A stretch of DNA of 64,000 nt from Candidatus Poribacteria bacterium (GTDB taxonomy: Bacteria; Poribacteria; WGA-4E; WGA-3G): positions 480,001-544,000 of the forward strand of contig OZ251518.1 in assembly GCA_965242965.1 (NCBI GenBank), read 5' to 3'. Positions 7,557 to 63,485 of this stretch are shown here, piece by piece. The notes beneath the pieces were generated by a model, which was not told the origin of the DNA, did not search any database, and saw nothing but the letters and a program-made list of their open reading frames with translations. Made by a program: the position numbers and the translations under genes. Every line of letters starts with the position of its first letter. The stretch's first letter is position 1.

Positions 7557-7708
7557 CTCTCCGAACGGAACTGAACAGCGTTTTTGCTAAATAAAAACCT
7601 TGATTTTATTTTTGGAATTTGTCATTATTCTATCAGAAACTTTATCCAAAACGTTGCGGGACGCGTTTCAATACGTTCCCGCGCAACATTACGAGGAGAT
7701 CTACGCTC

Positions 7709-35695: not shown

Positions 35696-37643
<1,948 letters not shown>

Positions 37644-37651
37644 AAATCACT

Positions 37652-38059
37652 ATGTTAAACCGAAGTTTTCACCTTGAAATTCGCACGCCAGAGAAGTTGA
37701 TTTACGAAGGGGAGGTTACGAGTGTCCGCGCGCCGGGTGTTGAGGGTAACTTCGAGATCCTCGCTGGGCACATCCCTTTCCTGACAGCTCTGGAAATCGG
37801 CGAGATTCGTATCCGTGAGGGAGATACCCCGCAGTTGCTCGCGACGAGCGGTGGCGTGTTTGAGGTGCTCCGTACCGGTGTTACGGCGTTGGTTGAGACA
37901 GCTGAGTGGGCATCAGAAATTGATGTCTCACGTGCAGAAACTGCGCTGTCGCGCGCGCAGGCGTATCTGGCCGCAAATGCCCCGGATCTAAATGTTCCGC
38001 GTGCATCGGCGGCGCGTGCCCGCGCGGAGAACCGGATTCGGGTTGCGAGCAACCTGTAG
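37652..38059 (+). CDS. atpC: ATP synthase F1 subunit epsilon
   Basis: LEIRTPEK, PGVEGNFEILAGH, ARARAENR. Confidence 0.94.
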   Translation: MLNRSFHLEIRTPEKLIYEGEVTSVRAPGVEGNFEILAGHIPFLTALEIGEIRIREGDTPQLLATSGGVFEVLRTGVTALVETAEWASEIDVSRAETALSRAQAYLAANAPDLNVPRASAARARAENRIRVASNL

Positions 38060-38127
38060 TATCGTCTGAATTTACCGGTAGGCACACTGACAAAGCGCGC
38101 CTCCGGATATGTTAGGGGGGCATATCG

Positions 38128-38700
38128 ATGGCATCTGTTGCAGCGCAGACCTTGGTAACGCCAGAGGAATATCTTGTTTTTGAACGCAAGGCCGAATTCA
38201 AAAGCGAGTTCTTCAATGGAGAGATTATTGAAATGCCAGGAGCAAGTAACGCGCATAACCTGATTACTGTGAATACTATCAACGGGATTTACAACCAAGT
38301 GGTAGAACAGGGATGCCGAGTTTACGGCAGCGATATGCGCGTCGGAACAAGTCCCGTGACATCTTACCTCTACCCGGATGTCTCCGTTGTTTGCGATGAA
38401 CCACGTTTTGAGGATGATGTCTTTGATACCCTCATCAATCCTCTTGTTCTAGTAGAGGTGCTTTCGCCCTCAACCGAAGCGCGGGACCGAGGTGAAAAAT
38501 TCGCCTACTACCGGCAGTTGGAATCTGTGCAAGAATACATCCTCATTTCACAGGACCGGGTTCGGGTTGAGCACTATCTTCGCCAGGGGGAAAAGTGGGT
38601 TTTTGAGGAATTGCGGGAATTCACGGATGTGCTTCGTGTCGTTTCGATTGCCTGTGAGTTGCCGTTGCAGCATATCTATCGCTTGGTTGAGTTTGCGTGA
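38128..38700 (+). CDS. Uma2 family (DUF820) putative endonuclease
   Basis: TPEEYL.FER, KSEFFNGEI, YPDVSVVC, VEVLSPST..RDRGEKF..Y, EYILISQD. Confidence 0.92.
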   Translation: MASVAAQTLVTPEEYLVFERKAEFKSEFFNGEIIEMPGASNAHNLITVNTINGIYNQVVEQGCRVYGSDMRVGTSPVTSYLYPDVSVVCDEPRFEDDVFDTLINPLVLVEVLSPSTEARDRGEKFAYYRQLESVQEYILISQDRVRVEHYLRQGEKWVFEELREFTDVLRVVSIACELPLQHIYRLVEFA

Positions 38701-38815
38701 GGATGCGTCTCGGTAATTTTGAAAGCGTTCCCGCCTTTTGTGAAGCGCGCCCACGGAACGTTGCGCGGGGGCCTGTCCCCTCGCAACGTTATTACATACG
38801 CGAGAGTTTTGATTC

Positions 38816-39023
38816 GCCGCTGTTGTGTTTTTTCACAACGGCGGCTTTTTTGTTGCGCGGTTTTTTTTTGCACTATCTCGCCTTTTTCGGAGAATTTTAA
38901 TAGAATTGTGTTTTTTTTCGGCAAAAAAGGAAAAAAAGTGGCAAAGGGCCTTAATTTTTTGGCAGCCGAGGGTATAATTAGAGTTAAGCGAACGTGGTAG
39001 GTATGATGCCTCGAAAATCCAAA
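38816..39023 (+). promoter_or_regulatory. Terminator-plus-promoter cassette, copy 1
   Basis: Hairpin gccgctgttgtg...cacaacggcggc plus T-run, then A/T tracts, ccttaatttt, tataat (38973-78), aggtatgatgcctcgaaaatccaaa; near-duplicate at 40778-40966. Confidence 0.8.
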
Positions 39024-39081
39024 GGGTTTGGATATCCGAAACGGGGCATCGCCTTCCACTCTTCCTTGAAGGAGAAGAAAA

Positions 39082-39588
39082 ATGTTTAGGAAATTGTTCA
39101 GTTCCCCATACATGGGGACTAAGAGTGGCGCATGGACAGTGCGTCTATCGGTAATCGGTTTGCTGGCACTGATGTGTCTTTTCACCGTGCCATCCGATGT
39201 GTATGCGATATCGGATTCCCGCTGGATAGGCGGTGTCTACGGTTCTGTAGAGTTGTGGGGCATCGGCTACAGCCGGCCGTATACGCGGAGTTCGCACTAC
39301 CTCACCGTATCGAACGAGAGTCGGTTCCTCGCCCGGTATGACTACGAGTTCAAGCACGCCATCCTGGAAACAGGCGACGAGAACACGAAAGTCAAACGGG
39401 ATCTGCGGCTCCGTGCCGGGGGCGTGTATATGGAGCCGAGTTACGGACGGCGCCTCAATCTCAACAGAATCCCGGAGTTAGAGCCAGGCGATCGGTTTAC
39501 GCTCTCGGCCTATACCCGCGTTGCGATTCGGGCACGCGGTGCCCGCGGTGGCTGGAAAGTGGAAATCAAGCGGCGTTTCCAGAAATAA
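39082..39588 (+). CDS. Hypothetical secreted basic protein
   Basis: RBS aaggag; hydrophobic signal-like segment ending VYA; C-terminus paralogous to the remnant at 41684-41793. Confidence 0.7.
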   Translation: MFRKLFSSPYMGTKSGAWTVRLSVIGLLALMCLFTVPSDVYAISDSRWIGGVYGSVELWGIGYSRPYTRSSHYLTVSNESRFLARYDYEFKHAILETGDENTKVKRDLRLRAGGVYMEPSYGRRLNLNRIPELEPGDRFTLSAYTRVAIRARGARGGWKVEIKRRFQK

Positions 39589-39658
39589 CTCTACCGCAGT
39601 GTGCCGTGCGCCGGATAGGCGTGCGGCACGCTATTTCTTAAAAGCGAGGAGAATCACC

Positions 39659-40729
39659 ATGCGTATTCAGAGCCTTTCCCTCAACATTGCGGCTGCCAAT
39701 ATACTCTTTGTGTTGATAGCGGCAGTTGCCTCGGCCGAAATTGTCTTCATCTCGGATCGCGATGGCAGCATTGACATCTACGAAAGCGACATCTACGTCA
39801 TGGACGATGAGGGCAGACGCGTCCGGCGGATCACGAACGATTTGCTCTATAAGAGTCGCCCGCGCTGGTCTCCCGATGGCGCACAAATTACTTTTTCTGC
39901 AGACCTAAATTCAGCGGTCCCGGAACAGGGGCAAGATATAGACGGATTCCTTATGAATGCAGATGGGACAAGATTGCAAAACTTGACACAACATCCCGCA
40001 CTAGATGGGGGTGGTGCTTGGTCTCCTGATGGACGCAGCCTGGCTTTTGTCAGCGATCGAAGCGGCGATTTTGAAATTCACGTGATGGATATCGCCACCG
40101 GTGCCGTGACACAACTGACAGACAGCACCGCGGTGGGCGGCTATGCCACGGGGCCCGCCTGGTCGCCCGATGGACAGCAGATTGCTTACCAAATGTCGCT
40201 GCCAGGACAAGGCCGGCACATCTATCTCATGGATGCTACCGGGAAACGTAACCGGCCCCTTGTCAAGCAATTAGTCCCAGCCGTGCTCGGGAAAACTTTC
40301 ATGAGTCATCACCCACGGTGGTCACCGGCAGGTGAATACTTGCTGTATAATGAGCGAGAGTTTGATGTCGGCCCCGACATGTTTAAGCGGGTCGCGAATC
40401 GTGTGATTATCCGTCGGCGGGATGGTTCGCAGCCGCGGGTGTTGGCGATACCGGCGACATGGCGTGTGGCTGACGTATGCTGGGCGGCAGATGGCACGGC
40501 GGTGCTTTTTTCTGGGATAGAAAATGGGTTGGTAGATTACGAGAGTGGGAACTACGAGATTTATCGCTATGAGTTAGCTAGTCGGCAGATAACAAATCTC
40601 ACCCATCATCCCAGTAACGACTGGGCACCGGACTGGTCTCCCCACCTTTTGTCTGTTTCCTCAGCCGGGAAATTAACCACGCAGTGGGCACGGATAAAGG
40701 CGAAAAGTGTGCCGAGTGAGTCCTTTTAG
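39659..40729 (+). CDS. TolB-like (PD40) beta-propeller protein 1, secreted
   Basis: Signal peptide ending ASA; repeated WSPDG motifs; tail LSVSSAGKLTTQWARIK. Confidence 0.88.
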   Translation: MRIQSLSLNIAAANILFVLIAAVASAEIVFISDRDGSIDIYESDIYVMDDEGRRVRRITNDLLYKSRPRWSPDGAQITFSADLNSAVPEQGQDIDGFLMNADGTRLQNLTQHPALDGGGAWSPDGRSLAFVSDRSGDFEIHVMDIATGAVTQLTDSTAVGGYATGPAWSPDGQQIAYQMSLPGQGRHIYLMDATGKRNRPLVKQLVPAVLGKTFMSHHPRWSPAGEYLLYNEREFDVGPDMFKRVANRVIIRRRDGSQPRVLAIPATWRVADVCWAADGTAVLFSGIENGLVDYESGNYEIYRYELASRQITNLTHHPSNDWAPDWSPHLLSVSSAGKLTTQWARIKAKSVPSESF

Positions 40730-40777
40730 CGCGGCAGGTTTCACTAGGGCAGTCACCATCGGCTTAACTCTCCCGCA

Positions 40778-40966
40778 GCCGCTGTTGTGTTTTTTCACAA
40801 CGGCGGCTTTTTCCACTGTCTCGCCTTTTTCGGCGAATTTTGACAGAATTGTGCTTTTTTCGGCAAAAAAGTAAAAAAAGTGGCAATGGGCCTTAATTTT
40901 TTTCGCATCCGAGGGTATAATTAAAATTAAGCGAACGTGGGAGGTATGATGCCTCGAAAATCCAAA
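40778..40966 (+). promoter_or_regulatory. Terminator-plus-promoter cassette, copy 2
   Basis: Near-identical to 38816-39023; tataat at 40916-21. Confidence 0.8.
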
Positions 40967-41044
40967 AGTAGAGATAAGAGGGCCCTGGACAACCGGGGCC
41001 CACTGCCGCTGCTACTGGACACAATCCTAAAAAGGAGTGAAAAA

Positions 41045-41683
41045 ATGCGGAACATCATTTTGCCGGCTATCATTCTCGTCCTGCTGATAGCCGGGTTTCA
41101 GTTCTACTTTGAGGTGGCGAAAAGGGATTTTGAGAGGAGCCTGCCTCAAGCACCAGAGCCGGTTGAACAGCAGAATGCGGATGCGCCTTCTGAATCTCTG
41201 GACGTGGAAGAGGCTACAGAGACAGGACTGGAGGAAGGGACGGCTGCAGTTGCTGCGCCCTCCGTGCAGACGCATGTCCCTGAGGATGATGCTGCTGTTG
41301 ACGTTGATTGGCGAGAGGATAATACACAGGACTCCCTCCTCCATGAAGTGGATCCGTGGCATCAAATCCACTCACAAGAATCGGAAGAGGGAGCAGAAGG
41401 CACACCGCCAAAAGTTCGGTGGTTTGAGATTGCCGATCCGTATGAGCGAGCAGCGGCGAATCGCGCGCAACTCATCCAGCAGTTTGGCGATATCCCCGAA
41501 GTGCATACGCATGTAGATATAGATCTGAAATTGCAATTGGGGATGTTCGTCACCCTTGACGAAGAGATAGCCCTCTATGAGGCAACTTACTCTCTGTGGC
41601 CTCATGAAGAGACGCTCAAATCTCTTAAGAGGGCAAGGGCTGATAAGGCAGCCGCATCGCGAGCGCGGACATTTTCGCACTGA
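41045..41683 (+). CDS. Hypothetical membrane-anchored/exported protein
   Basis: RBS aaggag; N-terminal hydrophobic helix, acidic linker, helical domain LIQQFGDIPEVHT shared with the 46642 protein. Confidence 0.75.
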   Translation: MRNIILPAIILVLLIAGFQFYFEVAKRDFERSLPQAPEPVEQQNADAPSESLDVEEATETGLEEGTAAVAAPSVQTHVPEDDAAVDVDWREDNTQDSLLHEVDPWHQIHSQESEEGAEGTPPKVRWFEIADPYERAAANRAQLIQQFGDIPEVHTHVDIDLKLQLGMFVTLDEEIALYEATYSLWPHEETLKSLKRARADKAAASRARTFSH

Positions 41684-41793
41684 TGAAGAGAGATGCTCGG
41701 CTTTGTCCGCGCACGCCTTAACGGCACCTCAATCTCAACACCATCCCTGAGCTAGACTGGAAAGTGGAAATCAAGCGTAAGTTTCGTAAGTAA
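41684..41793 (+). pseudogene. Deleted remnant of a paralog of the 39082 gene
   Basis: Encodes RHLNLNTIPELD-WKVEIKRKFRK*, versus RRLNLNRIPELE...WKVEIKRRFQK* in the intact gene. Confidence 0.75.
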
Positions 41794-41795
41794 CT

Positions 41796-42448
41796 GAGGG
41801 TGTTTCATAAATCGCTCGACATCGCGGTGACATGCCCCGCGCTACGGTGAAAAATGGGGAATTGCCGATGGGCGGGCCCTCCCGATCTCAATACCAGCCG
41901 GGTAGGAGAGACCTCCCGGTCTCGATGTCTTCGGGTAGGAGAGACCTCCTGGTCCCGATGTTCCCGTAGCACGGGGGCCTGTCCCCCGCGATGGCTCAAG
42001 CACGTTTTTTTATCGTAGCGCGGGGGCCTGTCCCCCGCGATCGCTATCGTCAAGGTATGTTTTTAGGTCCTTTAGGACATGTCTATAGAAAAACGTGCTA
42101 GCCCGTTTTCAAGGTCTTTTAGGAACTTAATAAAAACACGCGCCGCAGGGAAAAGCATATTAAGGACCTAAAGGACCTTAGCATTCTTCGCGTCTACGCG
42201 GGCTATAGACATTCAGGTCCTACAGACCTGAAGAGAGCAAGAGACGTTTTTTGCGTAGCGCGAACGCTGGCGAGGGACAGGCCCTCGCCCTACGATGAAG
42301 GGGGGCTTTCTGCCGCCGCTGCCCCAGTAGGCGCGACGACAGGAAGAAGGCAGAAATCGAGACCAGGAGGTCTCTCCTACAGGGAAAACGGAATCATTCA
42401 AGGTGCCACGAAATCATTTTTGACAACAACGAGTTATGAAACATCCTC
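41796..42448. mobile_element. MITE-like element with 15-bp TIRs, 8-bp TSD and REP/R3 cargo
   Basis: Left GAGGGTGTTTCATAA, right TTATGAAACATCCTC; AAGTAACT duplicated at 41788-95 and 42449-56; no transposase. Confidence 0.85.
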
Positions 42449-42516
42449 AAGTAACTCACTCAGTCTGCCCGCGCCAATTTGGCGCGAGGCACACTTTTCT
42501 TAGAAGGAGCGTTGTC

Positions 42517-43620
42517 ATGCGAATGCACAAACGTTTGGCAAAGACAGCGGCTGTCGTTATCCTCTGGGTAGGTATTGCGGCAGTTGCCTCAGCAGACATT
42601 GTCTTCCAATCCGACCGGGATGGGCAGTTTAACATTTACGTGATGAAGGATGATGGCAGCCATGTCCGCCGGTTAACGGACGCTCCGTTTTATGATTATG
42701 CGCCTACCTGGTCTCCCGATGGTAGGCACATCGCTTTCGTGCGAGATATGCATTGGGGCGGTGCAGGAAAGGGGCAACAGGATGACATCTTCCTGATGAA
42801 TGCTGATGGCACGCAGCTGCGGAATCTCACGCAACATCCCAAGTATGATGGAGGTGTGACTTGGGCACCGGATGGAAAGCACCTTGCGTTTGCGAGTGGG
42901 CGGAGTGGAGAGACAGAGATACATATCATGGAACTCGCCACGGGGGCCGTGGAACAACTCACGGACAACTCGAAGGAGGGCGGCTTTTCCGCTGCGCCGA
43001 GTTGGTCGCCAGATGGGCACCACATCGCCTATGAACAGGTGATACCGGGAGGTGGGCGGCACATCTATCTCATGGATGCTGATGGCAAGAATGCTAGACC
43101 TTTGCTCAAGGGTCCTCAACCCCATCTCATCGGAGAACACTTGAGGCAGCGCGGTTTTCCTCGCTGGTCCCCAGATGGACAACATATTCTGTATGTTGAA
43201 TATGAACTGCGTTTTGTGCCGGGCAAAATTATCCGCATGGCGAACCGTCTGATTGTAGTTGGCAAAAACGGCAGACGGCCGAAGAACCTAGGGATTCCAA
43301 AAAACTGGGACATAGGAGATGCCTGTTGGACAGCGGATGGCAAGGCGATTCTTTTTCCCGCGGTGAAAAACGGATTAACGCAACCTGTCCGCGGCAAGTT
43401 TGACATTTACCGGTATCAGCTGACGAGTGGGCAGTTGACGAATCTCACCCAGCATCCCGGGGACGACTATTTTCAGGACTGGATCTCGCCCCACCGTTTG
43501 TCCGTTTCTGCTACTGGGAAATTAACCCTGCGATGGGCACAGATTAAGGTGAGGTATGCAGAGAGAGGTCCTTTTTCGCGCGTGCAGGCTACCCAAAGCG
43601 TCCAGTCTCCGCATCCCTAA
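42517..43620 (+). CDS. TolB-like (PD40) beta-propeller protein 2, secreted
   Basis: RBS aaggag; signal ending VASA; WSPDG repeats; tail LSVSATGKLTLRWAQIK. Confidence 0.88.
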   Translation: MRMHKRLAKTAAVVILWVGIAAVASADIVFQSDRDGQFNIYVMKDDGSHVRRLTDAPFYDYAPTWSPDGRHIAFVRDMHWGGAGKGQQDDIFLMNADGTQLRNLTQHPKYDGGVTWAPDGKHLAFASGRSGETEIHIMELATGAVEQLTDNSKEGGFSAAPSWSPDGHHIAYEQVIPGGGRHIYLMDADGKNARPLLKGPQPHLIGEHLRQRGFPRWSPDGQHILYVEYELRFVPGKIIRMANRLIVVGKNGRRPKNLGIPKNWDIGDACWTADGKAILFPAVKNGLTQPVRGKFDIYRYQLTSGQLTNLTQHPGDDYFQDWISPHRLSVSATGKLTLRWAQIKVRYAERGPFSRVQATQSVQSPHP

Positions 43621-43626
43621 GTTTAT

Positions 43627-43663
43627 GCCGCTGGCGTGGTTTTCCACGCCAGCGGCTTTTTTG
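43627..43663 (+). terminator. Intrinsic terminator
   Basis: gccgctggcgtgg-tttt-ccacgccagcggc followed by tttttt. Confidence 0.8.
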
Positions 43664-43889
43664 TTACGGTTCACTTCTTTGCAAAAAAGTTGACGTTTCC
43701 GAAAAATGAGCACATATTAAGGGTAGCACCAGTAAAATTCGTGCGCGAACACCGCGATTTTGCAGATTTTTTGAGAAAAATGTGAAAAAAACGCAAAAAA
43801 AGTGCATTTTACCCTAAATTTTCGTCCTTTAATCCCTATACTATATATAAAGGACGAACTACCGTTATTTTCCGTGAGGAGGTTTCATC

Positions 43890-44711
43890 ATGAAAACGTC
43901 ACCTCGCCGCTATACCGCTCCGGATGCGTTAACGTGCTGTCTGCGGTGTGCCGAGACGCATGGCCCGTTATCACGGGAGGCGGAAGTGGCATTAGCGAAG
44001 CAAATGGAAGCCGGTGATGCCGGTGCACGCGATGGGCTGATCGAGGCGAACCTGCGCCTAGTCATTTCCATCGCGCGGAAATATCAGCACAACGGGATAC
44101 CCCTTGAAGACCTGGTTCAAGAGGGAAATATCGGGTTAATGAAGGCGGTGGATAAATTCGATTACCGGAAGGGGTGTAAACTCAGCACCTATGCGACACG
44201 CAGCATTGAAAAGGCAATTCAGGTGGCGGTTCGCCGCGATTCTGGGTTGACGCACCTACCTGGGCATCTCCGGCAGGGTGGTAAAGTCGCCGCCGCTTAC
44301 ACGAGGCTGTGTCAAGAATTGCAACGCGAACCGACGCACGCCGAAGTTGCGGCAGAAGTTGAGTTAACCGTTGCGCAAGTCGAAGAGATTCTGCTGTTCC
44401 GGGAAGGAACGATTTCGTTGGAGGCACCGGTTGGCGATGGAGACGACGACACCTCCGTTGGCGACTTCGTTGCAGATACGTCCGTGGACATAGAAGCAGA
44501 TCTGGTTCGTGCGGAAGTGCGGCAGCAGATTCGGGAGGCACTGTCCACGCTTACCGAGCGGCAGAAGACAATAGTGGTGTCAAAAGCGATTGAAGCGGTG
44601 AAAGGAAAAGAGATAGCCGAGCAATTGGATATCTCTTCCCCGCGTGTCACCCAAATCTACCATGAGGTGTTGGGGATATTAAAGGCGCGTTTGTCTCCGT
44701 TTCAGGCATGA
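43890..44711 (+). CDS. Sigma-70 family RNA polymerase sigma factor (RpoD/RpoS-like, no region 1.1)
   Basis: LIEANLRLVISIARKY, EDLVQEGNIGLMKAVDKFDYRKG, REPTHAEVA, EIAEQLDISSPRVTQI; RBS aggagg. Confidence 0.9.
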   Translation: MKTSPRRYTAPDALTCCLRCAETHGPLSREAEVALAKQMEAGDAGARDGLIEANLRLVISIARKYQHNGIPLEDLVQEGNIGLMKAVDKFDYRKGCKLSTYATRSIEKAIQVAVRRDSGLTHLPGHLRQGGKVAAAYTRLCQELQREPTHAEVAAEVELTVAQVEEILLFREGTISLEAPVGDGDDDTSVGDFVADTSVDIEADLVRAEVRQQIREALSTLTERQKTIVVSKAIEAVKGKEIAEQLDISSPRVTQIYHEVLGILKARLSPFQA

Positions 44712-44815
44712 GGCGAGTAGGCATTCCGGGCAGATTGAGTGCTTGTAAGCGCGGCGGCCCGCGCTGCATCCCTCACCGCGGCAGGCGAGGGACAGGTTCT
44801 CGCCTTACATTACCT

Positions 44816-45172
44816 GAGGGTGTTTCATATTTCGATGCCTTCCCCTTAGGAGAGACCTCCTGGTCTCAATGTTCCCGTAGCGCGGGGGCCTGTCCCCCGC
44901 GAGTGCCATCGTCCCGATGTGTGTTTCCCCTCTGTAGTTTGTGATTGCCTGATCACAAACGGGTCAGGATCTGGCGATCCTGACTTACAGGGCCTGGCAC
45001 GCGGACGCTGGCGAGGGAAACCCGCTCGGATGCGCGTGTGGCATCCGAGGGCCCTCGCCCTACGGTGAAGTGCCGTTTTTTCCGTAGCGCGGGGGCCTGT
45101 CCCCCGCGAGCGTTAGATTGCGCGGACGATATTGAGACCGGGAGGGTTCTCACAGATTTATGAAACACCCTC
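44816..45172. mobile_element. MITE-like element with the same TIRs and different REP cargo
   Basis: GAGGGTGTTTCATAT ... TTATGAAACACCCTC enclosing GTAG hairpins; no clean TSD. Confidence 0.7.
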
Positions 45173-45196
45173 CGTTAAGGCAGGAGGGAAGTTGTA

Positions 45197-46231
45197 ATGT
45201 TAACTTACAGAGGCAAGACAGCATCGGTGAGAGCCGCGGCGTTCCTAGCACTCGTTTTCATGCTGCTCGCTGCAGCGAATGCCTTCGCCGCGATTGTTTT
45301 CCGTTCGACCTGCGATGGCAACGGCGACATCTACGTCATGAACGATGATGGCAGCACCGTCACACGACTCACCAACACACCACTGCCGGAGTATCGCCCG
45401 CGCTGGTCTCCGGATGGCAGCGGTATCCTTTTTGTGCGAAAGTTTCGCGAACAACATGCCAATATCTTCCTCATGGATGCTGATGGCGGCAATGAACGGC
45501 ACCTCACGCATCATCCATCGGATGGACAACCCACCTGGGCACCCGATGGACGACACATTGCCTTCAAGAGTCGCCGCAGTGGCAATGCAGAAATTTACAT
45601 TATGGAGGTTGCAAGTGGGCAGTTGCGGCAACTCACGAAAACGGCGCGGGAGGAAGGGTTCTCCTCCGCGCCAAACTGGTCTCCGGATGGGCACCATATC
45701 GCTTATGAACATGTCGGCGCAAACGGCCGCCATATCTACATCGTTGATCGGGAGGGCAAACGGCCGCGGCCCTTTCTTAAAGGCCCCCAGCCGCATCTTG
45801 TGGGTGAACATCTGATTTCGCGTTACGCGCCGCGCTGGTCGCCGGATGGACAACACTTGGTGTATGAAGAAATTGAGTATCAGTTCGATCCGGCAAAACC
45901 GCTGCGTGTTTCCAACAAACTGATTGTGGTGGACAAGCACGGCAGACACCCGAACGTCCTGAAGATTCCAGAGACATGGTATGTCAATTATGCGTGTTGG
46001 GCGGCGGATGGCACGCAGATTCTTTTCGTCGCGGCGGAAGAGAGGTTGTTGGACCAGTTGCCGATTCGGGATTATGATATTTATCGGTATCATCGTTCGA
46101 GTGGCAAGATTGCGCAACTCACCGATACGCCGTATAAAGAGGTTTCACCGGACTGGACACCGCTGCGGCTGTCTGTTTCTGCCAATGGTAAAATCTCAAC
46201 CCAGTGGGGACAAGTGAAGCGCGCGGATTAA
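45197..46231 (+). CDS. TolB-like (PD40) beta-propeller protein 3, secreted
   Basis: Signal ending AFA; WSPDG repeats; tail LSVSANGKISTQWGQVK. Confidence 0.88.
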   Translation: MLTYRGKTASVRAAAFLALVFMLLAAANAFAAIVFRSTCDGNGDIYVMNDDGSTVTRLTNTPLPEYRPRWSPDGSGILFVRKFREQHANIFLMDADGGNERHLTHHPSDGQPTWAPDGRHIAFKSRRSGNAEIYIMEVASGQLRQLTKTAREEGFSSAPNWSPDGHHIAYEHVGANGRHIYIVDREGKRPRPFLKGPQPHLVGEHLISRYAPRWSPDGQHLVYEEIEYQFDPAKPLRVSNKLIVVDKHGRHPNVLKIPETWYVNYACWAADGTQILFVAAEERLLDQLPIRDYDIYRYHRSSGKIAQLTDTPYKEVSPDWTPLRLSVSANGKISTQWGQVKRAD

Positions 46232-46322
46232 CCGAGCAATGAAGACATGTGCGCGGGGCACTCCGCGCACATACCTGATACTGTCACCACGGTAGGTGAG
46301 GGCCAGGTTCTCGCCTGCCGCA

Positions 46323-46553
46323 GAAGGGGGCCGTTTTTCGACGCAGAAACCCGCCCGATACCGTAGCGCGGGGGCCTGTCCCCCGCGAACGGCCGGTAGA
46401 CCACAGCATGGCGAGGGACAGGCCCCCGCCCTACGATGAAGGGAGACCGTTTTTCGACTCAGAAACCCTCACGATACCGTAGCGCGGGGGCCTGTCCCCC
46501 GCGAACGGCCGGTAGCCCACGGCATGGCGAGGGACAGGCCCTCGCCCTACGAT
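46323..46553. repeat. Tandem ~115-bp REP doublets (BIME/REPIN-like)
   Basis: Two direct copies of gtagcgcgggggcctgtcccccgcga...tggcgagggacaggccc(c/t)cgccctac. Confidence 0.88.
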
Positions 46554-46641
46554 GAAGGGGAGCCGTTTGGATATCCGAAATGGGGAATTCTCTGCCAGTG
46601 ATGAATTTATCACGAACGACTTTGAGTAAAAGGAGATAACC

Positions 46642-47493
46642 ATGAAGACCAGCCTGTCCTTATCCGGCGTTTTTTGCCTCGTTTGCTTTCTCAGTCTGTC
46701 ATTATTTGGCGGCTGTGCGGGCACGGAGGACAGCGAAACTGAAACGCCAACCGCAGACACAACGCCGAGTGTCATGCCCTTTGTGCCAGTAGATATGCAG
46801 GCAGTGGAAGAACTCCGCTTACGCGCTGAATTCATTCGCGAGCAACTCTGGCAGGGGAAAATGGGGGTGCCGCTGGACTGGGACAAGACAGCAGACCCGC
46901 TGTTACGTGCCGAATACGCGCGCTTCCTGCTCCGCAAGGAGAGAATTGCGATACCTTTCAACTGGGCTCAGACAGCCGACTTGTTCGTGCGCGCCGAATA
47001 TGAACGCGCGCTGCTCCTGAAGGAGTTCGGCGATATCCCGGCGGTTCACACGATTGCGGATTACGGCAAATTCGCGCGTCTGGCTGGCGCGTCTACGGTG
47101 ACGCGTGAGGAATTCATCGCCTTTTTTGCGGCGCAATACAAACTCTTCCCGAATGAAGCAAATCGGCGTGCCTTAGAAACAGCGAGAAAACCAGAACGCG
47201 TCGCGGGGCCAGAGCTGGAGAAGATGAGAATAGTAGCACCCGAGTTATGGGCCCAACACAAGCACGAGCAGCTTATCCGGCAGCATGGGGATAGCCCACA
47301 AGTTGACATCGTTGCCGATTTTATCCGAAAGGTGGAACTGCAACTCCCCAGAACTGATGAGGAATGCCATGCTTTTCTAAAGGCATTACGGCATCTCGAT
47401 CCGTTTGAGACTCAGCATCTGAAACGGTTTGGATATCCTTATGATGAAGGCTATGCTGCGCTTGAAGCCCGAGCCCAACTCCATCTCATGTGA
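46642..47493 (+). CDS. Hypothetical lipoprotein; the frame continues past TGA to 47604
   Basis: RBS aaggag; lipobox-like LFGGC; internal repeats LLKEFGDIPAVHT and LIRQHGDSPQVD. Confidence 0.75.
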   Translation: MKTSLSLSGVFCLVCFLSLSLFGGCAGTEDSETETPTADTTPSVMPFVPVDMQAVEELRLRAEFIREQLWQGKMGVPLDWDKTADPLLRAEYARFLLRKERIAIPFNWAQTADLFVRAEYERALLLKEFGDIPAVHTIADYGKFARLAGASTVTREEFIAFFAAQYKLFPNEANRRALETARKPERVAGPELEKMRIVAPELWAQHKHEQLIRQHGDSPQVDIVADFIRKVELQLPRTDEECHAFLKALRHLDPFETQHLKRFGYPYDEGYAALEARAQLHLM

Positions 47494-47734
47494 CATGAAC
47501 TAGCGTGGCGCGCCCTAGAAAAATACCGAGAAGCGAAAGCGAAGGGGATTCCATTTCGTCTCATTGACTGGGAGGACGGTGGCCCTGTTCATATCATTGA
47601 TTGATAGGGATGAAGGGGCGTAAGCATTAGCGCGGAGGAAATCTATCCCGTGGGCCGAAGTCAAATCGGAACGTTAACTGAAATTGACTGCGGACGAAAA
47701 GACGTGTGCGCGGGGCGGCCCGCGCACATGCTTT

Positions 47735-48559
47735 TTATACTGTCAATGTCACCCTGTCCTGCTTGACAATTTCCTTGGTATGTCCATACGGCGCGGAGGC
47801 AACCAATTCCAACGTTTCTGGTGAAAGCCTGTCCAGAATGGGTTGCGGCAGGTTATGTCTGCCAGTGTATTGCGGATAATAACGCAGCACGAGGAACCGC
47901 CTGTCTCTGTCCTTCGGTTTCCATCGCAGCACGCCGTGCGTGAGGAGCTCTGAAATAATCACAATATCCCCTGCCTTCGGCGTGATGTTGGTGAAAACCG
48001 GGTTATCGACAGGATCGATGCCGTCCTCTTCATCAAGCGTCAGCAAAGTTTCGGGCCGGGTGAACTCGCTCTTATGCGAACCGGGAATCACGATGAGTCC
48101 GCCATCGCCCGGATGCACGTCGGTAAAATAGGTAAAACAGACGAAGTCATCGCAATAGATGCTCCCGTTGTCTACCTCGTAGCGGGTGCTATACCATCCG
48201 TAGTCATCGCGTGCGCAGTGTAAGCCGCCCGGATTGACTTTCGCGCGTTCGCCCGGTTCCCACAAGTCGTGCTTATCGTGTTTCAGTGAGCCGCGCGCAA
48301 ACCGCGGCCGGTCCGCCGTGAATTCCTTGATAATCGGCCACGTCGCGGCGTGCATCGTCAAGCACTCTAGCGATTTGTCAAAGGCGAACCCGTGCTGATG
48401 GAGTCCCTTCACTTCAAACCCTGAGGGCAATTCATCGGGTGGTGTGTTGATATATCTGTCCACCGCCTCGGTTGCCTCGGTTAATGCGTCGCCGGTGATG
48501 ACGTTTTCTAAGTGGAGATAGCCTGTCACGTCAAAGAGATAGCGTTGTTTCGGAGTCAT
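47735..48559 (-). CDS. PhyH-family Fe(II)/2-oxoglutarate oxygenase (HxA variant)
   Basis: QRYLFDVTGYL, LHCA, DGGLIVIPGSHK, AGDIVIISELLTHG, RR. Confidence 0.85.
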   Translation of the reverse strand: MTPKQRYLFDVTGYLHLENVITGDALTEATEAVDRYINTPPDELPSGFEVKGLHQHGFAFDKSLECLTMHAATWPIIKEFTADRPRFARGSLKHDKHDLWEPGERAKVNPGGLHCARDDYGWYSTRYEVDNGSIYCDDFVCFTYFTDVHPGDGGLIVIPGSHKSEFTRPETLLTLDEEDGIDPVDNPVFTNITPKAGDIVIISELLTHGVLRWKPKDRDRRFLVLRYYPQYTGRHNLPQPILDRLSPETLELVASAPYGHTKEIVKQDRVTLTV

Positions 48560-48577
48560 GGTTTTGATTCTCCTTCT

Positions 48578-49456
48578 CTACAGTGCCATATCAAACTTCG
48601 TTCCGGTCACGTTGCCTTTCACATAAGCGTCCCTGAAGAGTGTCTGCCGTTTTGGCGGCATCGATTCTAACAGAGCCTTCGGCGGTTTTGAAAGGCTCCA
48701 CCGTTTATCAACAGAGTTATACGCGTTGAAAACCGCAACTCTGTCGGTGTTCGGGTTGTGCCACGGCTGTCCGCTGTGCGTAATCGCTTCCGTAAAGATG
48801 ATAACAGAACCGGGGGGACAAGCGTAGGTATCCCAGAACTCCCAGTCTTGCGTATGCGCGCACGCCGGTGCGGTATAGGCAGCTTTGTGACTTCCTGTGA
48901 TGAACATTGTTCCGCCATCGCCTTTTTCCACCGGGTTGAGTTCCCACACCACGCGCGTCAATCCGCTATAGGCTTGCCCGGGGAGGCAGTGGTATTCGTG
49001 GCAGTCGCCCGGCATCCGCAACATTCCATTGCCGTTATGTGGATGGAATTTGAAAGGCGTTTCGTCTTTCGTAGAACGTAATGCCAAGAAACTCATCTCC
49101 ATGCGGAACCCGTAGCATGTCTCCGAGGCTAAATAAGCAGATGCGAGGAATTCGTTGCCGAATGCCACGATGACAGGATGATCGGTGAGTTTCTCAAGTG
49201 GGCCGCCATAGGTGGAACGATGGTGTTGCGGAATTGTCTCTGGGGCTTGCTGCAGCCGATAGCAGAAATCCCGCATCTCTTCAACCTCGGCATCTGTTAG
49301 CACGCCCGGTATTAAGAGCCACCCGTTCTTATCAAATAGGTATTTTTGCTCTTGCGTGAGTGGGCTAACCGTTGCGCCATCGGCGTTGGTTTGCGTTAGG
49401 GCTGCAGCGGACGTTGCCAATGGGCTCCCGAGGTCTTTGTTAAATTTGAGTGTCAT
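48578..49456 (-). CDS. PhyH-family Fe(II)/2-oxoglutarate oxygenase (HxG variant)
   Basis: QKYLFDKNGWL, PHNG, DGGTMFITGSHK, PGSVIIFTEAITHSG. Confidence 0.85.
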   Translation of the reverse strand: MTLKFNKDLGSPLATSAAALTQTNADGATVSPLTQEQKYLFDKNGWLLIPGVLTDAEVEEMRDFCYRLQQAPETIPQHHRSTYGGPLEKLTDHPVIVAFGNEFLASAYLASETCYGFRMEMSFLALRSTKDETPFKFHPHNGNGMLRMPGDCHEYHCLPGQAYSGLTRVVWELNPVEKGDGGTMFITGSHKAAYTAPACAHTQDWEFWDTYACPPGSVIIFTEAITHSGQPWHNPNTDRVAVFNAYNSVDKRWSLSKPPKALLESMPPKRQTLFRDAYVKGNVTGTKFDMAL

Positions 49457-53319: not shown

Positions 53320-55130
53320 GTGAAAACCGACAAAACCCCGAAAACGACACCCGCTCCAAACGAGGAGCGGCTCCGACAACTCAAGCAACTCTTCCCTGAA
53401 TGCCTCACCGAAGGCGAAGTGGACATGGAGAAACTTGCGAATATACTGCAGGTTTGTGAAGGGGGGGGGTAAACCAAAAGGATAGGTATCACTTCAATTG
53501 GGCAGGCAAGCGCGATGCCATCCGCCTACTCAATGTCCCCACCGAGGCTACTCTTATCCCATGCCGAGAGGAGTCGCTCCATTTTGACAGCACCTCAAAC
53601 CTCTTCATTGAGGGTGATAACCTAGAGGTGCTGAAACTCCTCTACAAACCCTATTTCGGACGCGTGAAGGCGATTTACATCGATCCGCCTTACAACACCG
53701 GCAACGACTTCGTCTATCCCGATAACTACGCGAAGCCGTTGGATACCTATCTCCAATTGTCGGGTCAAATCGATGCCGCTGGCAATCTGCAGACGAGCAA
53801 TCCGGAGAGTGGTGGCCGTTACCACTCGGCATGGTTATCGATGATGTATCCACGCCTTTTCCTTGCGCGGCAGTTGCTCACGGATGATGGCCTCATCTTC
53901 GTTAGTATCGATGACCGCGAGGTGCATGATCTTCGCTTCATGTTAAATGAGATTTTTGGCGAGGAAAATTTTATGCAACAACTCGTATGGCAACGACATG
54001 CTGGCGGCCGTAGTGATGTCAAGCATTTTGCAACAGACCACGAGTATATCCTCACGTATGCTAAAAATCTCCAGTCCATCGGTAAGTTGAGGCGGCCGTT
54101 AACCGAGGAGGAGAAAGCGGACTACACGGAAAAAGACGAGTATTATGGGACTCTCGGGCCCTATAAAACTCGCGGATTTCAAGCACAGCGTCAACATGGT
54201 GGGCATCTCTACGAGATCGAATGTCCCGACGGATCAGTGGTTTTGAAGCATTGGCGATGGCAGCAATCGCGTTTTCTGCAAGCGAAACAGGAAAACAAAA
54301 TCGCTTTCAAGCAGAACCAAAACGGGACATGGCGGGTTGAATATAAACTCTACCAGAATGAGGCTGCAAGGGTTCTGCGGAGTTTGTTGACAGATGTGGA
54401 ACGAAATAGCCATGCCCGCGCGCAGCTTCGGCGAATTTTCAAAGCAGATGATATTTTTGATTATCCAAAGCCGGTGGGTTTAATCAAACACCTCCTGCAG
54501 TTCAGCACTGACGCAGATTCCATCGTTTTGGATTTCTTCGCGGGCTCCTGCCCAACGGCGCAGGCGGTTCTAGAACTCAATCAGGAAGATGGCGGCAACC
54601 GACAGTTTATCGTCGTGCAACTCCCTGAACTGACACCGGAAAAATCGGAGGCGCGCAAGGCAGGATTTGAGACGATTGCCGAGATTGGCAAAGAACGGAT
54701 CCGCCGCGTGTGTTTGCAGGAAAACACGGGTTTTCGCGTCTTCAAACTTGCCGAGTCCAACTATCGGACAGAAGACGATGTCCGCACCGAGGATGTGCAA
54801 ACTTACATCGCGCAGTTGGAAAGCACTATCGATGCGCTTCGGGACGGATGGCGCGAAGAGGATGTCCTTTATGAAGTTGCGCTTAAAGAGGGATATCCAC
54901 TGGACAGCGAGATTGAACGCGTTACGGGCCTGGAGACGAATACGGTTTTTCAGATTGCCGCGCCCGATGGTTCGCAGATGTTCCACGTCTGTTTGGATGC
55001 GGAACTTGCGCCGAGAGATATAGAGCGTCTAGGGTTGTCAAAGGATTCCGTGTTTATCTGCCGGGATGTTGCGTTAACGGATACGCTTGCAGCGAACTTG
55101 GCATTGCAGTGTCGCCTTAAGACTCTCTGA
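53320..55130 (+). pseudogene. mod: Type III R-M methyltransferase, frameshifted at G9 (53461-53469)
   Basis: 5' part LKQLFPECLTEGEVD; 3' frame RYHFNWAGK, FIEGDNLEVLK, IYIDPPYNTG, YPKP, LDFFAGS; one extra G joins the two frames. Confidence 0.88.
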
Positions 55131-55199
55131 TACCAAACCGTGATGGGCAAACTCAGGTGCTCTTGCCCACGGGTGTCGCCAAAATGGGCCGTTTTAATC

Positions 55200-55727
55200 C
55201 CGACATGGCGAGGGACAGGCCCTCGCCCTACGGTGAAGGGAACTGTTTTTTACCGTAGCGCGGGGGCCTGTCCCCCGCGATCTCTATCGTCAAGAGTCGC
55301 GTTTTAGGTCCTTTAGGTCCTACATGTCTATAGCAACACGTGTCGGCCCGTTGTCAAGGTCCTTTAGGTCCTTAATAAGAAACGCGCGGCCCCGGCAAAA
55401 TCTATTAAGGTCCTACAGACCTTAGGGTTCTTCGCGGGCGCGCATGCTATAGACATTAAGGTCCTACGGACCTAAGAGACGTTTTTTTCGTAGTGCGGGG
55501 GCCTGTCCCCCGCGACGTTGTGCGATTTATGAAACACCCTCAATTAGATAAGGCGTGCCTGATCTTGACCCGTTCGGGATCGGGCGATCCCGAACTACAG
55601 AGTTATGAAACACCCTCGTTTTAATGCTGATTCAGACATCCGACATGGCGAGGGACAGGCACTCGCACTACGATACAACGAGGAAAGGCGAGGGACAGGC
55701 CCTCGCCCTACGATACAACGAGGAAAA
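55200..55727. repeat. Repeat cluster between mod and res
   Basis: GTAG hairpins at 55207, 55255, 55490; R3 element 55301-55481; TIR-like ttatgaaacaccctc ending 55541 and 55617; ~40-bp tandem duplication 55647-55727. Confidence 0.85.
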
Positions 55728-61451: not shown

Positions 61452-62057
61452 CTATGCCTTTTGCTCCACCATGTTGACGAGGATACCGAGGATTCTATCG
61501 CACCGTTCGATCGGGTAGGTTGCCATATCAATATGCAGGCACTTTCCCTCCAATTTCAGGAATAGCCATTCTGTGCCAGTTGTGGAAACTCCGTAAACGC
61601 GAGGGATATCATTGCCTTTTTCAGCGTTAAAGCGTTGGGCGGCGAGCATTTCCGCAACACATTGCCCAAGCCCCAGTTTCAAGTCAAGATTTTTCGCCTC
61701 AACGAGGACGATGACAGGGGCCGCCAAATCAAGCTGGTCTGGCGATAGACTCACTAAAAAATCGCAAACGCCTGTCAAGCCGCATCCCGGGTCAACGCTA
61801 AAATCAATGCCGGAAAAGAAACTAATCCGGTAATTGAAATGCTCAAGGAGTTCAACAAGCACATCGGCGACAATCAGTTCCGACCGGGCTTTCTCCGTGC
61901 CGATAGCGGTGGCTAACGATACCTTTTTCGCCAAGCCTGTGGTGAGATACGCGCTGGGTTCCACAGGCTCTATTTCAGAAAAGAGGCCAGTAGACAGAAC
62001 CTTTTTGAGTTGGAACGTTTTCTGCGCTTCTGCTAGGGTGAAATTGCTATAAGCCAT
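61452..62057 (-). CDS. MAYSNFTL-type putative PD-(D/E)XK nuclease-fold protein, copy 3
   Basis: TEKARSELIV, GVCDFLVS, VEAK, GQCVAEM.AAQRFN, TTGTEW.F. Confidence 0.8.
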   Translation of the reverse strand: MAYSNFTLAEAQKTFQLKKVLSTGLFSEIEPVEPSAYLTTGLAKKVSLATAIGTEKARSELIVADVLVELLEHFNYRISFFSGIDFSVDPGCGLTGVCDFLVSLSPDQLDLAAPVIVLVEAKNLDLKLGLGQCVAEMLAAQRFNAEKGNDIPRVYGVSTTGTEWLFLKLEGKCLHIDMATYPIERCDRILGILVNMVEQKA

Positions 62058-62086
62058 TGATCAAACCTCTTGTGTAGGGAATCGTC

Positions 62087-62692: not shown

Positions 62693-62782
62693 AACCGCAC
62701 CTCTTTTGTAGTGAGCCGCAATTCTATTTGCGCCTTATTGCCTCATGGCACACGAGCCCAAACTACTCAGGGTAATTTAGTC

Positions 62783-63388: not shown

Positions 63389-63442
63389 TGATATAGCCTC
63401 CTCTGCAATGTTCTCAAGGCAAAATCTAACGCGAGTGCTGTC

Positions 63443-63470
63443 GGGCGAGGATTTGTGCGAATCCTCGCCC
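63443..63470 (-). terminator. Hairpin after dnaK
   Basis: gggcgaggatt-tgtgcg-aatcctcgccc; no clear U-tract. Confidence 0.5.
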
Positions 63471-63485
63471 AGTTGAAATGGCACG

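Follow-up and report, generated by a model that had tools for sequence, protein, structure and literature searches.

A putative alternative-sigma-linked envelope cluster around an undescribed protein family in Candidatus Poribacteria

Introduction

Beta-propellers of the PD40 and TolB-like kinds belong to the repeat domains that are enriched in sponge microbiomes, as described in the available portions of two papers (PMC9531527, PMC5735121), and propeller-bearing or membrane-linked sigma factors also have precedents: the available portion of a third paper (PMC8999054) describes extracytoplasmic function (ECF) sigmas of group ECF57 with WD40-like C-terminal extensions, as well as IutY sigma/anti-sigma hybrids that are cut free by proteolysis. 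Here we analyze a stretch of 64,000 nucleotides (nt) of Candidatus Poribacteria bacterium (contig OZ251518.1), hereafter referred to as the window, and within it a gene cluster at approximately 38816-47730 that brings together three secreted TolB-like propellers, two exported proteins of a family that we call FG, a small secreted protein and a divergent sigma-70 factor. Judging from gene content, FG proteins, PD40 propellers and a sigma-type regulator of changing kind appear to form a unit that recurs across the phylum, to which the small protein and the particular sigma of the window would be clade-specific additions.

Poribacteria are uncultured and sponge-associated, and what can be learned of their biology comes mainly from gene context. 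The FG family is a phylum-restricted exported family with a confident all-helical model and without relatives in PDB or BFVD, and it travels with TolB-like propellers and with three kinds of promoter-specificity regulators. Should this link be functional, it would provide a testable model of how Poribacteria symbionts sense or maintain their envelope, as well as a natural example of a single module whose control has shifted among sigma-54, ECF and sigma-70-type regulators; the divergent sigma would be amenable to testing outside its own host. The literature open in full text, a body outside of which subscription journals lie, yielded nothing on the cluster, on the motif FGDIP, or on Poribacteria together with PD40, TolB, sigma factor, ECF or sigma-54, and the available portion of PMC7826278 makes no mention of propeller, PD40, TolB or Poribacteria.

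Results

The cluster comprises seven genes, all on the + strand, located between a Uma2 gene (38128-38700) and an opposite-strand PhyH pair (47735-49456), and each of the seven carries a GGAG-type ribosome-binding site ahead of its ATG (Table 1). All seven proteins are present letter for letter in a public protein collection, on a 5,661,971-nt contig. Pfam recognizes PD40 in the three propellers and regions 2, 3 and 4 (1.2 weakly) in the sigma, and neither Pfam nor NCBIfam returns a match for the small protein, FG1 or FG2. We identified export signals by visual inspection of the translations, with support from a hydropathy scan; they consist of signal peptides in the three propellers and the small protein, a lipobox in FG2 and a membrane helix in FG1. 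A prior sequence-only reading of this DNA had described co-oriented genes between the Uma2 gene and the PhyH pair, exported in character and including three paralogous secreted TolB-like propellers, two proteins with a common FGDIPxVHT domain, a small secreted protein together with its remnant and one sigma-70 factor, all of which we recover; its end coordinate of 47604 had to be abandoned, as that position is reached only via read-through of an in-frame TGA and FG2 ends at 47493.

FG1 and FG2 share 31% identity over 170 amino acids (aa; E 9e-14), with the respective motifs FGDIPEVHT and FGDIPAVHT. We define the FG domain as a helical domain of about 85 aa with the pattern W..D..Y.AQL.KQFGDIP.VH ... 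A.Y.L.P.E, located behind a membrane helix or a lipobox. A hidden Markov model (HMM) of this domain finds one copy in FG1 (E 6e-32) and two in FG2 (E 4e-32 and 5e-14), the latter featuring in addition a weak partial third match at residues 73-94. The AlphaFold model of FG2, obtained with 55 sequences, is all-helical with 13 helices, at a mean predicted local distance difference test (pLDDT) score of 86.1, above 90 through most of residues 50-250, and a predicted template modeling (pTM) score of 0.65; Foldseek searches with this model returned zero matches at E <=0.001 in PDB and BFVD. At the sequence level, the best match of the family in PDB has an E of 0.017 and is to designed proteins, and when the members were compared with Pfam one by one no Pfam family matched more than 2 of the 55, such that both candidate relationships were discarded.

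The family is nevertheless well populated. A word-indexed search of 5.8 billion proteins retrieved six relatives of FG2, and an exhaustive profile search of 1.84 billion representative proteins retrieved 212 FG relatives at E <=0.001. A scan of one genome per species gave 142 pattern-matching stretches, 54 of which encode an FG relative, in 48 distinct loci (numbered below with the prefix L) from 26 assemblies. Poribacteria account for 45 of these 48 loci and entries labeled 'uncultured bacterium' for the other three, which together with the confinement of the window's small protein and sigma to a narrow clade agrees with the lineage-specific character proposed earlier. Overall, FG is a real, phylum-restricted, exported and undescribed protein family.

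Over the 48 loci, window included, 791 open reading frames (ORFs) were called and clustered. This set holds 87 FG genes, 77 of which could be typed by their anchor. The membrane-helix type (24 of 77) has a single domain in 23 of 24 cases, behind a linker with a median length of 98 aa that is rich in T, P, D, E and S, and the lipoprotein type (53 of 77) has two domains in 43 of 53 cases, after a shorter acidic linker. In Escherichia coli, lipoproteins with a residue other than Asp after the lipid-carrying Cys are sorted to the outer membrane; because the FG2 type has Ala or Gly, not Asp, at this position, the same rule suggests that the FG2 lipoprotein would reside in the outer membrane. The usual arrangement is that of a membrane-anchored FG gene followed directly by a lipoprotein FG gene and often, after the pair, by a small secreted gene of a family that we refer to as f3. 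The window does have one FG gene of each anchor type, but 5 kb apart, and it contains no f3 homologue, so that the cassette of adjacent FG genes plus f3 is not found in it. The f3 proteins themselves (112-157 aa; present in L002, L004, L010, L017, L021, L025, L027, L028, L030, L031, L032, L035, L038 and L039) match no Pfam and no NCBIfam family and have invariant His-Pro, HxxH and C-terminal Cys residues that could form a metal site or a disulphide.

The three propellers of the cluster are 45-54% identical in pairwise comparisons (E 2e-95 to 9e-131) and each matches Pfam PD40 at E 2e-28 to 1e-34. In a tree of propellers the window's three copies form one clade beside the propellers of L042, L025 and L010, and the PD40 parts of ECF fusions described below group with the free propellers encoded alongside them.

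We then considered what FG genes are found next to, with neighbor classes assigned by Pfam on recurrent families and by home-made HMMs, and with the position of each gene counted, as a rank, from the FG gene closest to it. Of the 184 genes at rank <=2, 14 are PD40 genes, compared with 9 of the 460 farther out (Fisher p = 0.001), and for sigma-type regulators the counts are 11 of 184 and 8 of 460 (Fisher p = 0.006), p-values that are too optimistic since L013-L016 and L022-L024 are syntenic or orthologous. At least five different architectures display the link between FG genes and regulators or PD40. Stand-alone PD40 propellers adjoin FG genes in L008, L013, L014, L022, L023, L034, L042 and L045, the last with six copies, and stand-alone ECF sigmas occur in L002 (two), L010 and L020, with fragments in L005 and L015. 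Two kinds of fusion join an ECF sigma through a membrane helix to a propeller: 559-564 aa proteins ending in PD40, with the helix at about residues 219-237 (L013:11421-13100, L014:12657-14336 and L024:5606-7300), and 964-1035 aa proteins ending in a BNR/sortilin propeller (L021:5040-7934, L036:3305-6412 and L038:10786-13680). Sigma-54 activators consisting of AAA+ and helix-turn-helix (HTH) modules only are present in L017, L033, L035, L036, L038 and L042, and in L031 a second ill-fitting sigma that is not of the ECF type lies directly upstream of an FG-FG-f3 cassette.

The activator-containing loci come with matching promoters. Perfect sigma-54 promoters (TGGCAY-N5-TTGCW) number 14 in the 755 kb of FG loci and zero in the window; seven of the 14 immediately precede FG genes or, in the case of L042, PD40 followed by FG, and an eighth is located beside an activator. 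L042, which belongs to the same assembly as the locus of the best FG2 match (L001), runs from activator through sigma-54 promoter to a PD40 gene whose product is 42% identical to propeller 2, followed by two FG genes.

With the cluster proteins themselves as tblastn queries, propeller homologues were found in 13 of the 48 loci and a sigma homologue in one (L031, 27% identity), a protein that we considered as a distant orthologue of the window sigma and rejected in view of this identity and of its very long separate branch. The window flanks show no synteny with any of the 48 FG loci, and there is therefore no locus orthologous to the window among the species representatives. The conserved co-localization that the sequence-only reading proposed to look for is found within the clade, and for FG genes with PD40 and sigma-type regulators across the phylum, but not for the window sigma outside its clade (1 of 48). 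Further recurrent neighbors of FG genes are sulfatases, sulfatase-modifying enzymes, ConA-like lectin-fold proteins and FG-GAP proteins. Separately, in L045:253-12946 six PD40 genes are interleaved on one strand with four Laminin_G_3 (ConA-like) and two FG genes.

The cluster contains a repeated gene unit. Unit A is made up of promoter, small gene, hairpin, propeller 1 and terminator. Its 159-nt promoter and leader block is 82% identical to that of unit B, and in a repeat search the matching stretches also run through the propeller genes and their 3' ends; unit B appears to be a copy of unit A in which most of the small gene is replaced by FG1. The duplication of a promoter, exported protein, hairpin and propeller unit noticed at first sight is hence retained for promoter, propeller and terminator, but the strong hairpin occurs in unit A only: at its position unit B has a repeat-rich spacer of about 660 nt, and a repeat-rich spacer is likewise found at the corresponding position after the sigma gene.

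Within these blocks we identified a 28-nt motif, AAAAAAAGTG-N8-CCTTAATTTT in unit A and AAAAAAAGTG-N8-CCTWAATTTT in its general form, which has three occurrences in 64 kb (0 expected). They precede unit A, unit B and the sigma gene, each 14-15 nt before a TATAAT or TATACT box. All of the DNA from the terminator through to the start codon of the sigma gene can be aligned to its counterparts in A (score 76.5) and B (score 62.0), where shuffled controls averaged 14.7 and 13.1 and peaked at 39 and 28.5, respectively. By this alignment the sigma gene, with propeller 3 behind it, appears to occupy a third and older version of that frame. All three promoters have a perfect or near-perfect -10 box and no TTGACA-like -35, and a consensus scan did not call them; canonical TTGACA-17-TATAAT promoters are present elsewhere in the window. 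A stretch upstream of FG2 that resembles the unit A leader (family D20) was considered as a fourth promoter and set aside, as it looks like part of a unit of the REP-like (repetitive extragenic palindromic) kind described below. In addition, an inverted repeat, CGTCCTTTA ... TAAAGGACG, at 43823-43854 brackets the TATACT box before the sigma gene; it has no counterpart in units A and B, and could be an operator.

Two further lineages feature blocks of their own. In L031 a 30-nt motif that occurs exactly twice in all loci plus the window is found 219 nt before the sigma ORF and 291 nt before the first FG gene, in both places within a 49-nt stretch of 78% identity. The L013-L024 group has eight copies (search with up to four mismatches) of a block of about 70 nt, located 48-397 nt upstream of its target genes, and all eight targets are FG (L006, L013, L014), ECF or ECF-PD40 (L014, L015, L024) or PD40 genes (L022, L023), these sites being partly orthologous and equivalent to about two independent positions. 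In three separate lineages, then, a sigma gene and an FG or PD40 gene have the same upstream block, the plain reading of which would be co-regulation of the two.

The sigma factor of the cluster is itself unusual. It matches Sigma70_r2 (2e-20), r3 (9e-20), r4 (7e-7) and r4_2 (4e-8) of Pfam, and its orthologues form six 90% clusters at 82-96% identity, all 273 aa in length; the next relatives, at <=47% identity, are RpoD-like Poribacteria sigmas of 316-433 aa. Alignment with the latter shows the sigma clade to be devoid of the acidic N-terminal stretch and to read YATRSIEKAIQVAV where the relatives read YAIWWIKQAIMRTL, with loss of the Trp-Trp dyad and of -10 reading positions. Region 2.3 is YATRSIEK versus YAIWWIKQ in the relatives (WW to RS), the -35 helix of region 4.2 is SSPRVTQIY versus TRERIRQLE, and region 4 has a 4-residue deletion; we take the changed residues to be those of -10 and -35 reading from what is known of E. 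coli sigma-70. The altered regions 2.3, 2.4 and 4.2 are kept in the orthologues of 82-96% identity. In a maximum-likelihood tree the sigma clade (7 rows, support 100/100) stands beside the RpoD-like group on a stem branch of 2.44 substitutions per site, with tip branches of <=0.17, and because such a long stem is followed by short tips, this pattern of fast change and subsequent conservation points to a new specificity rather than a dead gene.

The protein also falls outside the primary and ECF classes of sigma-70 factors. RpoD models score it at 176-183 bits versus cut-offs of 354-572, which sets it apart from primary (group 1) sigmas. ECF (group 4) sigmas possess regions 2 and 4 only and span about 160-220 aa; the window sigma has region 3 and 273 aa, and a home-made HMM of the Poribacteria ECF group gives it only 21 bits.

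Within the clade, at least 20 assemblies keep the sigma together with cluster genes, at sigma identities as low as 82%, with placement on the same contig inferred from equal contig sizes and not from contig sequence. A 13,216-nt contig carries, relative to the window, the sigma at 90%, propeller 3 at 92%, FG2 at 78% and a paralogue of the small protein at 40% identity; a 24,939-nt contig has FG1, propeller 2, propeller 3 and FG2; sigma is found with FG2 on a 4,081-nt contig and with FG1 on a 3,684-nt contig; and contigs of 4,045, 5,817 and 5,964 nt have the sigma at 89% together with the small protein at 81-84%. Between close strains, FG2 and the small protein are much more variable than the sigma or propeller 3.

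The small protein has a signal peptide ending in VYA and a mature part of 126 aa with an isoelectric point of 10. It has no Pfam, NCBIfam or PDB match, and its homologues amount to nine clusters only, eight at 80-95% identity and one at 37%. The remnant of a second copy of its gene lies downstream of FG1. Membership in f3 was rejected (hhalign probability 6.5%), the two being unrelated with only a signal peptide in common. A paralogue from a close strain (P0135) has the same first 28 residues as the window protein and a mature part that is only about 30% identical.

FG2 as encoded ends at an in-frame TGA (47491-47493), after which the next 37 codons are intact to 47604 and identical to those of a homologue, P0001, that is 93% identical to FG2 and has Arg at the TGA position. 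All 14 other listed members of the 90% cluster of FG2 are 320-324 aa long, and in the window TGA serves as a regular stop codon for 15 of 48 long ORFs. Taken together, the TGA would be either a recent nonsense change or a sequencing error.

Table 1. Features of the cluster, in order along the window
Feature	Position	Strand	Details
Terminator hairpin after Uma2, copy 1	38816-38845	+	12-pair stem and T run; family D10
Promoter and leader block, unit A	38865-39023	+	family D6; motif 38931-38958, TATAAT 38973-38978
Small secreted protein gene	39082-39588	+	168 aa
Hairpin, small gene to propeller 1	39598-39632	+	-34.8 kcal/mol, z = -4.86; no T run after
Propeller 1 (PD40)	39659-40729	+	356 aa; signal peptide end ASA
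Terminator hairpin, copy 2	40778-40807	+	family D10
Promoter and leader block, unit B	40808-40966	+	motif 40873-40900; TATAAT 40916-40921
FG1	41045-41683	+	212 aa; N-terminal membrane helix, acidic linker of about 97 aa, one FG domain (FGDIPEVHT)
Remnant of second small-gene copy, 3' end	41721-41795	+	repeat families D18, D19; translation RHLNLNTIPELDWKVEIKRKFRK, then stop
Repeat-rich spacer 1	41794-42450	no strand	inverted 21-nt motif at ends; holds REP-like palindromes
Propeller 2 (PD40)	42517-43620	+	367 aa; signal peptide end ASA
Terminator hairpin, copy 3	43627-43656	+	13 pairs and TTTTTT; family D10
Diverged third promoter motif copy, ahead of sigma gene	43795-43842	+	TATACT 43837-43842
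Divergent sigma-70 paralogue	43890-44711	+	273 aa; regions 1.2 to 4
Repeat-rich spacer 2	44814-45174	no strand	ends are the same inverted 21-nt motif as in spacer 1
Propeller 3 (PD40)	45197-46231	+	344 aa; signal peptide end AFA
Hairpin, then tandem pair of 116-nt REP units (46326-46557)	46242-46563		families D9, D16
FG2 lipoprotein	46642-47493	+	283 aa as encoded; lipobox LFGGC, two full FG domains
In-frame TGA of FG2, then 37 intact last codons	47491-47604	+	read-through translation
Terminator hairpin closing cluster	47703-47730	+	12 pairs and CTTTTT

Repeats of a more general nature pervade the intergenic DNA. Two GC-rich palindromic REP-like families, GCGGGGGCCTGTCCCCCGC and GGAGAGACCTCCTGGTCTCGAT, have matches over 28698-58993 (31 matches) and 10086-55966 (10 matches), and because such palindromes occur all over the window they would be genome-wide elements rather than part of the cluster's logic. 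The hairpin at 46242-46272 is 87% identical to that at 47699-47729. A 21-nt motif, CTGAGGGTGTTTCATAWWTCG, has seven copies (41794, 42430, 44814, 45154, 52551, 55523 and 59149) versus 0.01 expected, and bounds the repeat-rich spacers as inverted pairs. The presence of ATGAAACACCC in its reverse complement gives several ORFs, that of malate dehydrogenase at 59155 among them, a beginning of MKHP..., and the motif could be one terminus of a miniature mobile element supplying a start codon.

On its upstream side the cluster is preceded by glycine cleavage, Trk, complex I and ATP synthase genes, and on its downstream side it is followed by PhyH, aldo-keto reductase, M42 peptidase, a type III restriction system and malate dehydrogenase (Pfam). 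A foreign origin was considered and rejected, as the cluster shows no compositional sign of one and its G+C content of 0.50-0.58 resembles that of the flanks. An Rfam scan of 38000-48000 gave no match near the gathering score, and the 64-kb window contains no tRNA gene. Elsewhere in the window, a CitMHS_2 transporter gene (E 7e-178) at 24745-26340 splits two Proton_antipo_M genes of the complex I operon, and a gene for a DnaJ-C28 conserved domain (DJC28_CD) at 35696-36169 lies within the ATP synthase operon, between the gamma and beta genes. The Uma2 gene matches the PADLOC candidate defense family PDC-S03 (E 3e-24), and a type III restriction-modification pair, methylase and Res helicase-endonuclease, is found at 53628-58379, 6 kb downstream of the cluster. 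A 955-aa protein at 7619-10486, with leucine-rich repeats and bacterial Ig-like, dockerin and FlgD Ig-like domains, looks like a typical 'eukaryote-like' surface protein and has relatives in four FG loci. Finally, three tandem paralogues (201, 201 and 360 aa) at 61452-63865 on the - strand have no Pfam match, and L016 contains a relative.

Discussion

These data can be assembled into a reading that we hold with about as much belief as doubt, in which the cluster is a chromosomal cell-envelope module of Candidatus Poribacteria under its own sigma. Soluble periplasmic TolB-like PD40 propellers would act together with, and probably contact, the helical FG domain, which would be held at two envelope depths: behind a membrane helix and a long acidic linker in FG1, and as a two-copy lipoprotein in FG2. 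Through the common promoter block the gene units and the sigma gene would be expressed together, with the fast-evolved sigma as the likeliest reader of the block, presumably activating its own gene along with the exported ones. Historically, a unit of promoter, small gene, propeller and terminator would have been duplicated in tandem, after which the small gene would have been replaced in one copy, repeat elements inserted and, recently, a nonsense mutation acquired by FG2. In the window clade a neo-functionalized sigma-70 paralogue would thereby take the place that sigma-54 activators or ECF sigmas occupy elsewhere.

A number of observations weigh against a module of this kind, and several of them bear on whether the sigma reads the block at all. 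The three block copies of the window are homologous by descent and tandem duplication alone could explain their sharing; their TATAAT or TATACT box is the housekeeping -10 box, and the sigma has lost the very residues by which primary sigmas read a TATAAT box. The block of the L013-L024 group holds a sigma-70-like TTGCTA-16-TATACT, such that a housekeeping sigma could read that one as well, and relaxed sigma-54 sites are not enriched upstream of FG genes (5 of 53 FG upstream regions versus 34 of 648 others). Outside its narrow clade the window sigma does not accompany FG genes, the one homologue in 48 loci being unrelated on the tree; the small protein is found in none of the 48 loci by tblastn, 32 of 48 have no sigma-type regulator within 10 kb and 35 of 48 have no propeller homologue by tblastn. 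To these come the optimistic bias of the Fisher p-values, the indirect, size-based assignment of clade proteins to common contigs, and the signs of decay in the cluster, namely the gene remnant, the FG2 nonsense codon and the repeat insertions.

Several of these observations are what one would expect if the sigma were a bystander, namely a general alternative sigma with targets in other parts of the genome that was captured by a duplicating terminator-promoter unit, and if the exported genes were an ordinary family of envelope or secreted proteins read by the housekeeping sigma. Three promoters with TATAAT or TATACT boxes, a block related by descent, a sigma that has neither the Trp-Trp dyad nor those region 2.4 residues with which primary sigmas recognize TATAAT, the lack of an orthologue of this sigma near FG genes in 48 loci and the majority of FG loci without a nearby regulator all speak for it. 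A bystander fits less well with promoters that have no TTGACA-like -35 although canonical promoters exist in the window, with the enrichment of sigma-type regulators beside FG genes, with an upstream block common to sigma and FG or PD40 gene in two further lineages, and with the occurrence of the sigma together with cluster genes on short contigs (3.7-5.9 kb) across the clade. We consider it somewhat unlikely, while deserving of serious weight. The sigma-controlled character that was proposed from the window alone is suggested by the common block at both units and the sigma gene and by the same pattern in two other lineages, and is qualified by the descent of the block from duplication and by its TATAAT box.

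If the cluster is indeed a module under its own sigma, the direction of information flow can be read in two ways. The ECF-helix-PD40 fusions show, as far as domain order can, that in this phylum the periplasmic sensor part of a sigma can consist of a PD40 propeller, and because such fusions exist it is plausible that free propellers and/or FG proteins pass a signal on to the regulators they are linked with; propellers and FG proteins could just as well be no more than the output under regulation. A further-reaching proposal, which we put forward as doubtful, is that of a trans-envelope apparatus in which the FG domain is displayed both from the inner membrane and on an outer-membrane lipoprotein, the propellers bind it, and the resulting state is reported to dedicated sigmas. 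This would explain the propeller-ECF fusions, as well as sigma-54 activators and specialized sigma-70 paralogues guarding the same genes, and, if true, it would represent a new kind of cell-surface signaling or envelope-tethering system in an uncultured symbiont phylum.

Alternatively, the cluster may be a host-interaction or substrate-sensing set, in which the propellers would rank as 'eukaryote-like' repeat proteins, with exposed or released proteins that bind sponge matrix or host factors, and with the sigma-linked versions acting as trans-envelope sensors that switch on degradative genes. This would be in line with the place of PD40 and TolB-like propellers among the repeat domains reported as enriched in sponge microbiomes in the portions available of PMC9531527 and PMC5735121, with the sulfatases, lectin-fold and FG-GAP proteins that FG loci are often beside and the PD40/Laminin_G_3 array of L045, and with the exported FG2 and small protein diverging far more in close strains than the sigma and propeller 3. 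Yet the cluster contains no secretion system gene, its signal peptides and lipoboxes carry the proteins only to the periplasm or the outer membrane, nothing ties these proteins to any host molecule, and the window flanks are housekeeping genes (ATP synthase, complex I, PhyH), which leads us to regard a host-interaction set as decidedly improbable. Finally, that the cluster is no working unit, only a hotspot of duplication and repeat insertion with unrelated decaying exported genes and a sigma paralogue, could be argued from the remnant at 41721-41795, the FG2 nonsense codon, the repeat-rich spacers and REP arrays between genes and the 5 kb that separate FG1 and FG2, adjacent in most loci, but seems very improbable given that the seven genes are otherwise intact with good ribosome-binding sites, that full-length orthologues at 78-99% identity are kept in many assemblies, that the same three gene classes meet again in independent lineages, and that REP elements are found all over the window and are not special to the cluster.

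Comparison with Known Systems

Among described envelope machineries the cluster recalls Tol-Pal, with which it has in common a topology of propeller, lipoprotein and protein on a membrane helix with a long linker. The three propellers match the TolB beta-propeller profile TIGR02800 at 141-156 bits and, like TolB, are predicted to be periplasmic, and among solved structures they come closest to TolB chains and to 2ojh, a stand-alone propeller (E 1e-21 to 1e-22). These scores are, however, far below the TIGR02800 cut-off of 343, the aligned positions are about 240-386 of 418, and the mature window propellers begin with the first blade, such that the N-terminal alpha/beta domain of TolB is missing. 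FG1-type proteins can be likened in their build to TonB or TolA, with membrane helix, long flexible linker and C-terminal domain, and FG2-type proteins to outer-membrane lipoproteins, but FG proteins have no similarity to Pal or TolA. Pfam finds none of the TolQ, TolR, TolA and Pal families among the 45 window ORFs scanned and no window propeller is a full-length match to TolB, in accord with the view taken from the outset that this is not Tol-Pal.

The window sigma shares the order of regions 1.2 to 4 with group 2/3 sigma-70 factors such as RpoS and SigB, and its best family and PDB matches are RpoD, SigA, RpoS and SigB, but no NCBIfam model reaches its cut-off (best 183 bits versus 555). The copy of the target-like promoter block ahead of its own gene is reminiscent of self-activating sigmas. 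[quoted passage not shown] The other six cluster proteins match no PADLOC model, and we rejected a defense-system reading, as PADLOC matches only the generic sigma domain, plus Uma2 outside the cluster.

Across the phylum, the AAA+/HTH-only activators of six FG loci (TIGR02974, 268 bits) recall by this domain makeup PspF, the type of sigma-54 activator known from envelope-stress operons, and in these loci FG or PD40-FG genes are preceded by perfect sigma-54 promoters. The six loci differ from PspF systems in scoring below the cut-off of 444 and in that no pspA-like gene was seen in them, and the window is without an activator (no Sigma54_activat among its ORFs). Among these loci L042 has the same order, from regulator to propeller to FG, as sigma, propeller 3 and FG2 in the window.

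ECF57 and IutY find their likeness in the FG-locus ECF sigmas that are joined via one membrane helix to a PD40 or BNR/sortilin propeller, unlike the window sigma, which is not of the ECF type (it has region 3) and is unfused, and the window propellers, which are free secreted proteins. The initial statement that the cluster matches no described system remains apt for the FG family and the small protein, but not for the propellers and the sigma, which have clear relatives. Overall, on the gene content and promoter architecture described here, the locus is best portrayed as a putative alternative-sigma-linked envelope cluster, assembled from relatives of known propellers and sigma factors around an undescribed protein family.

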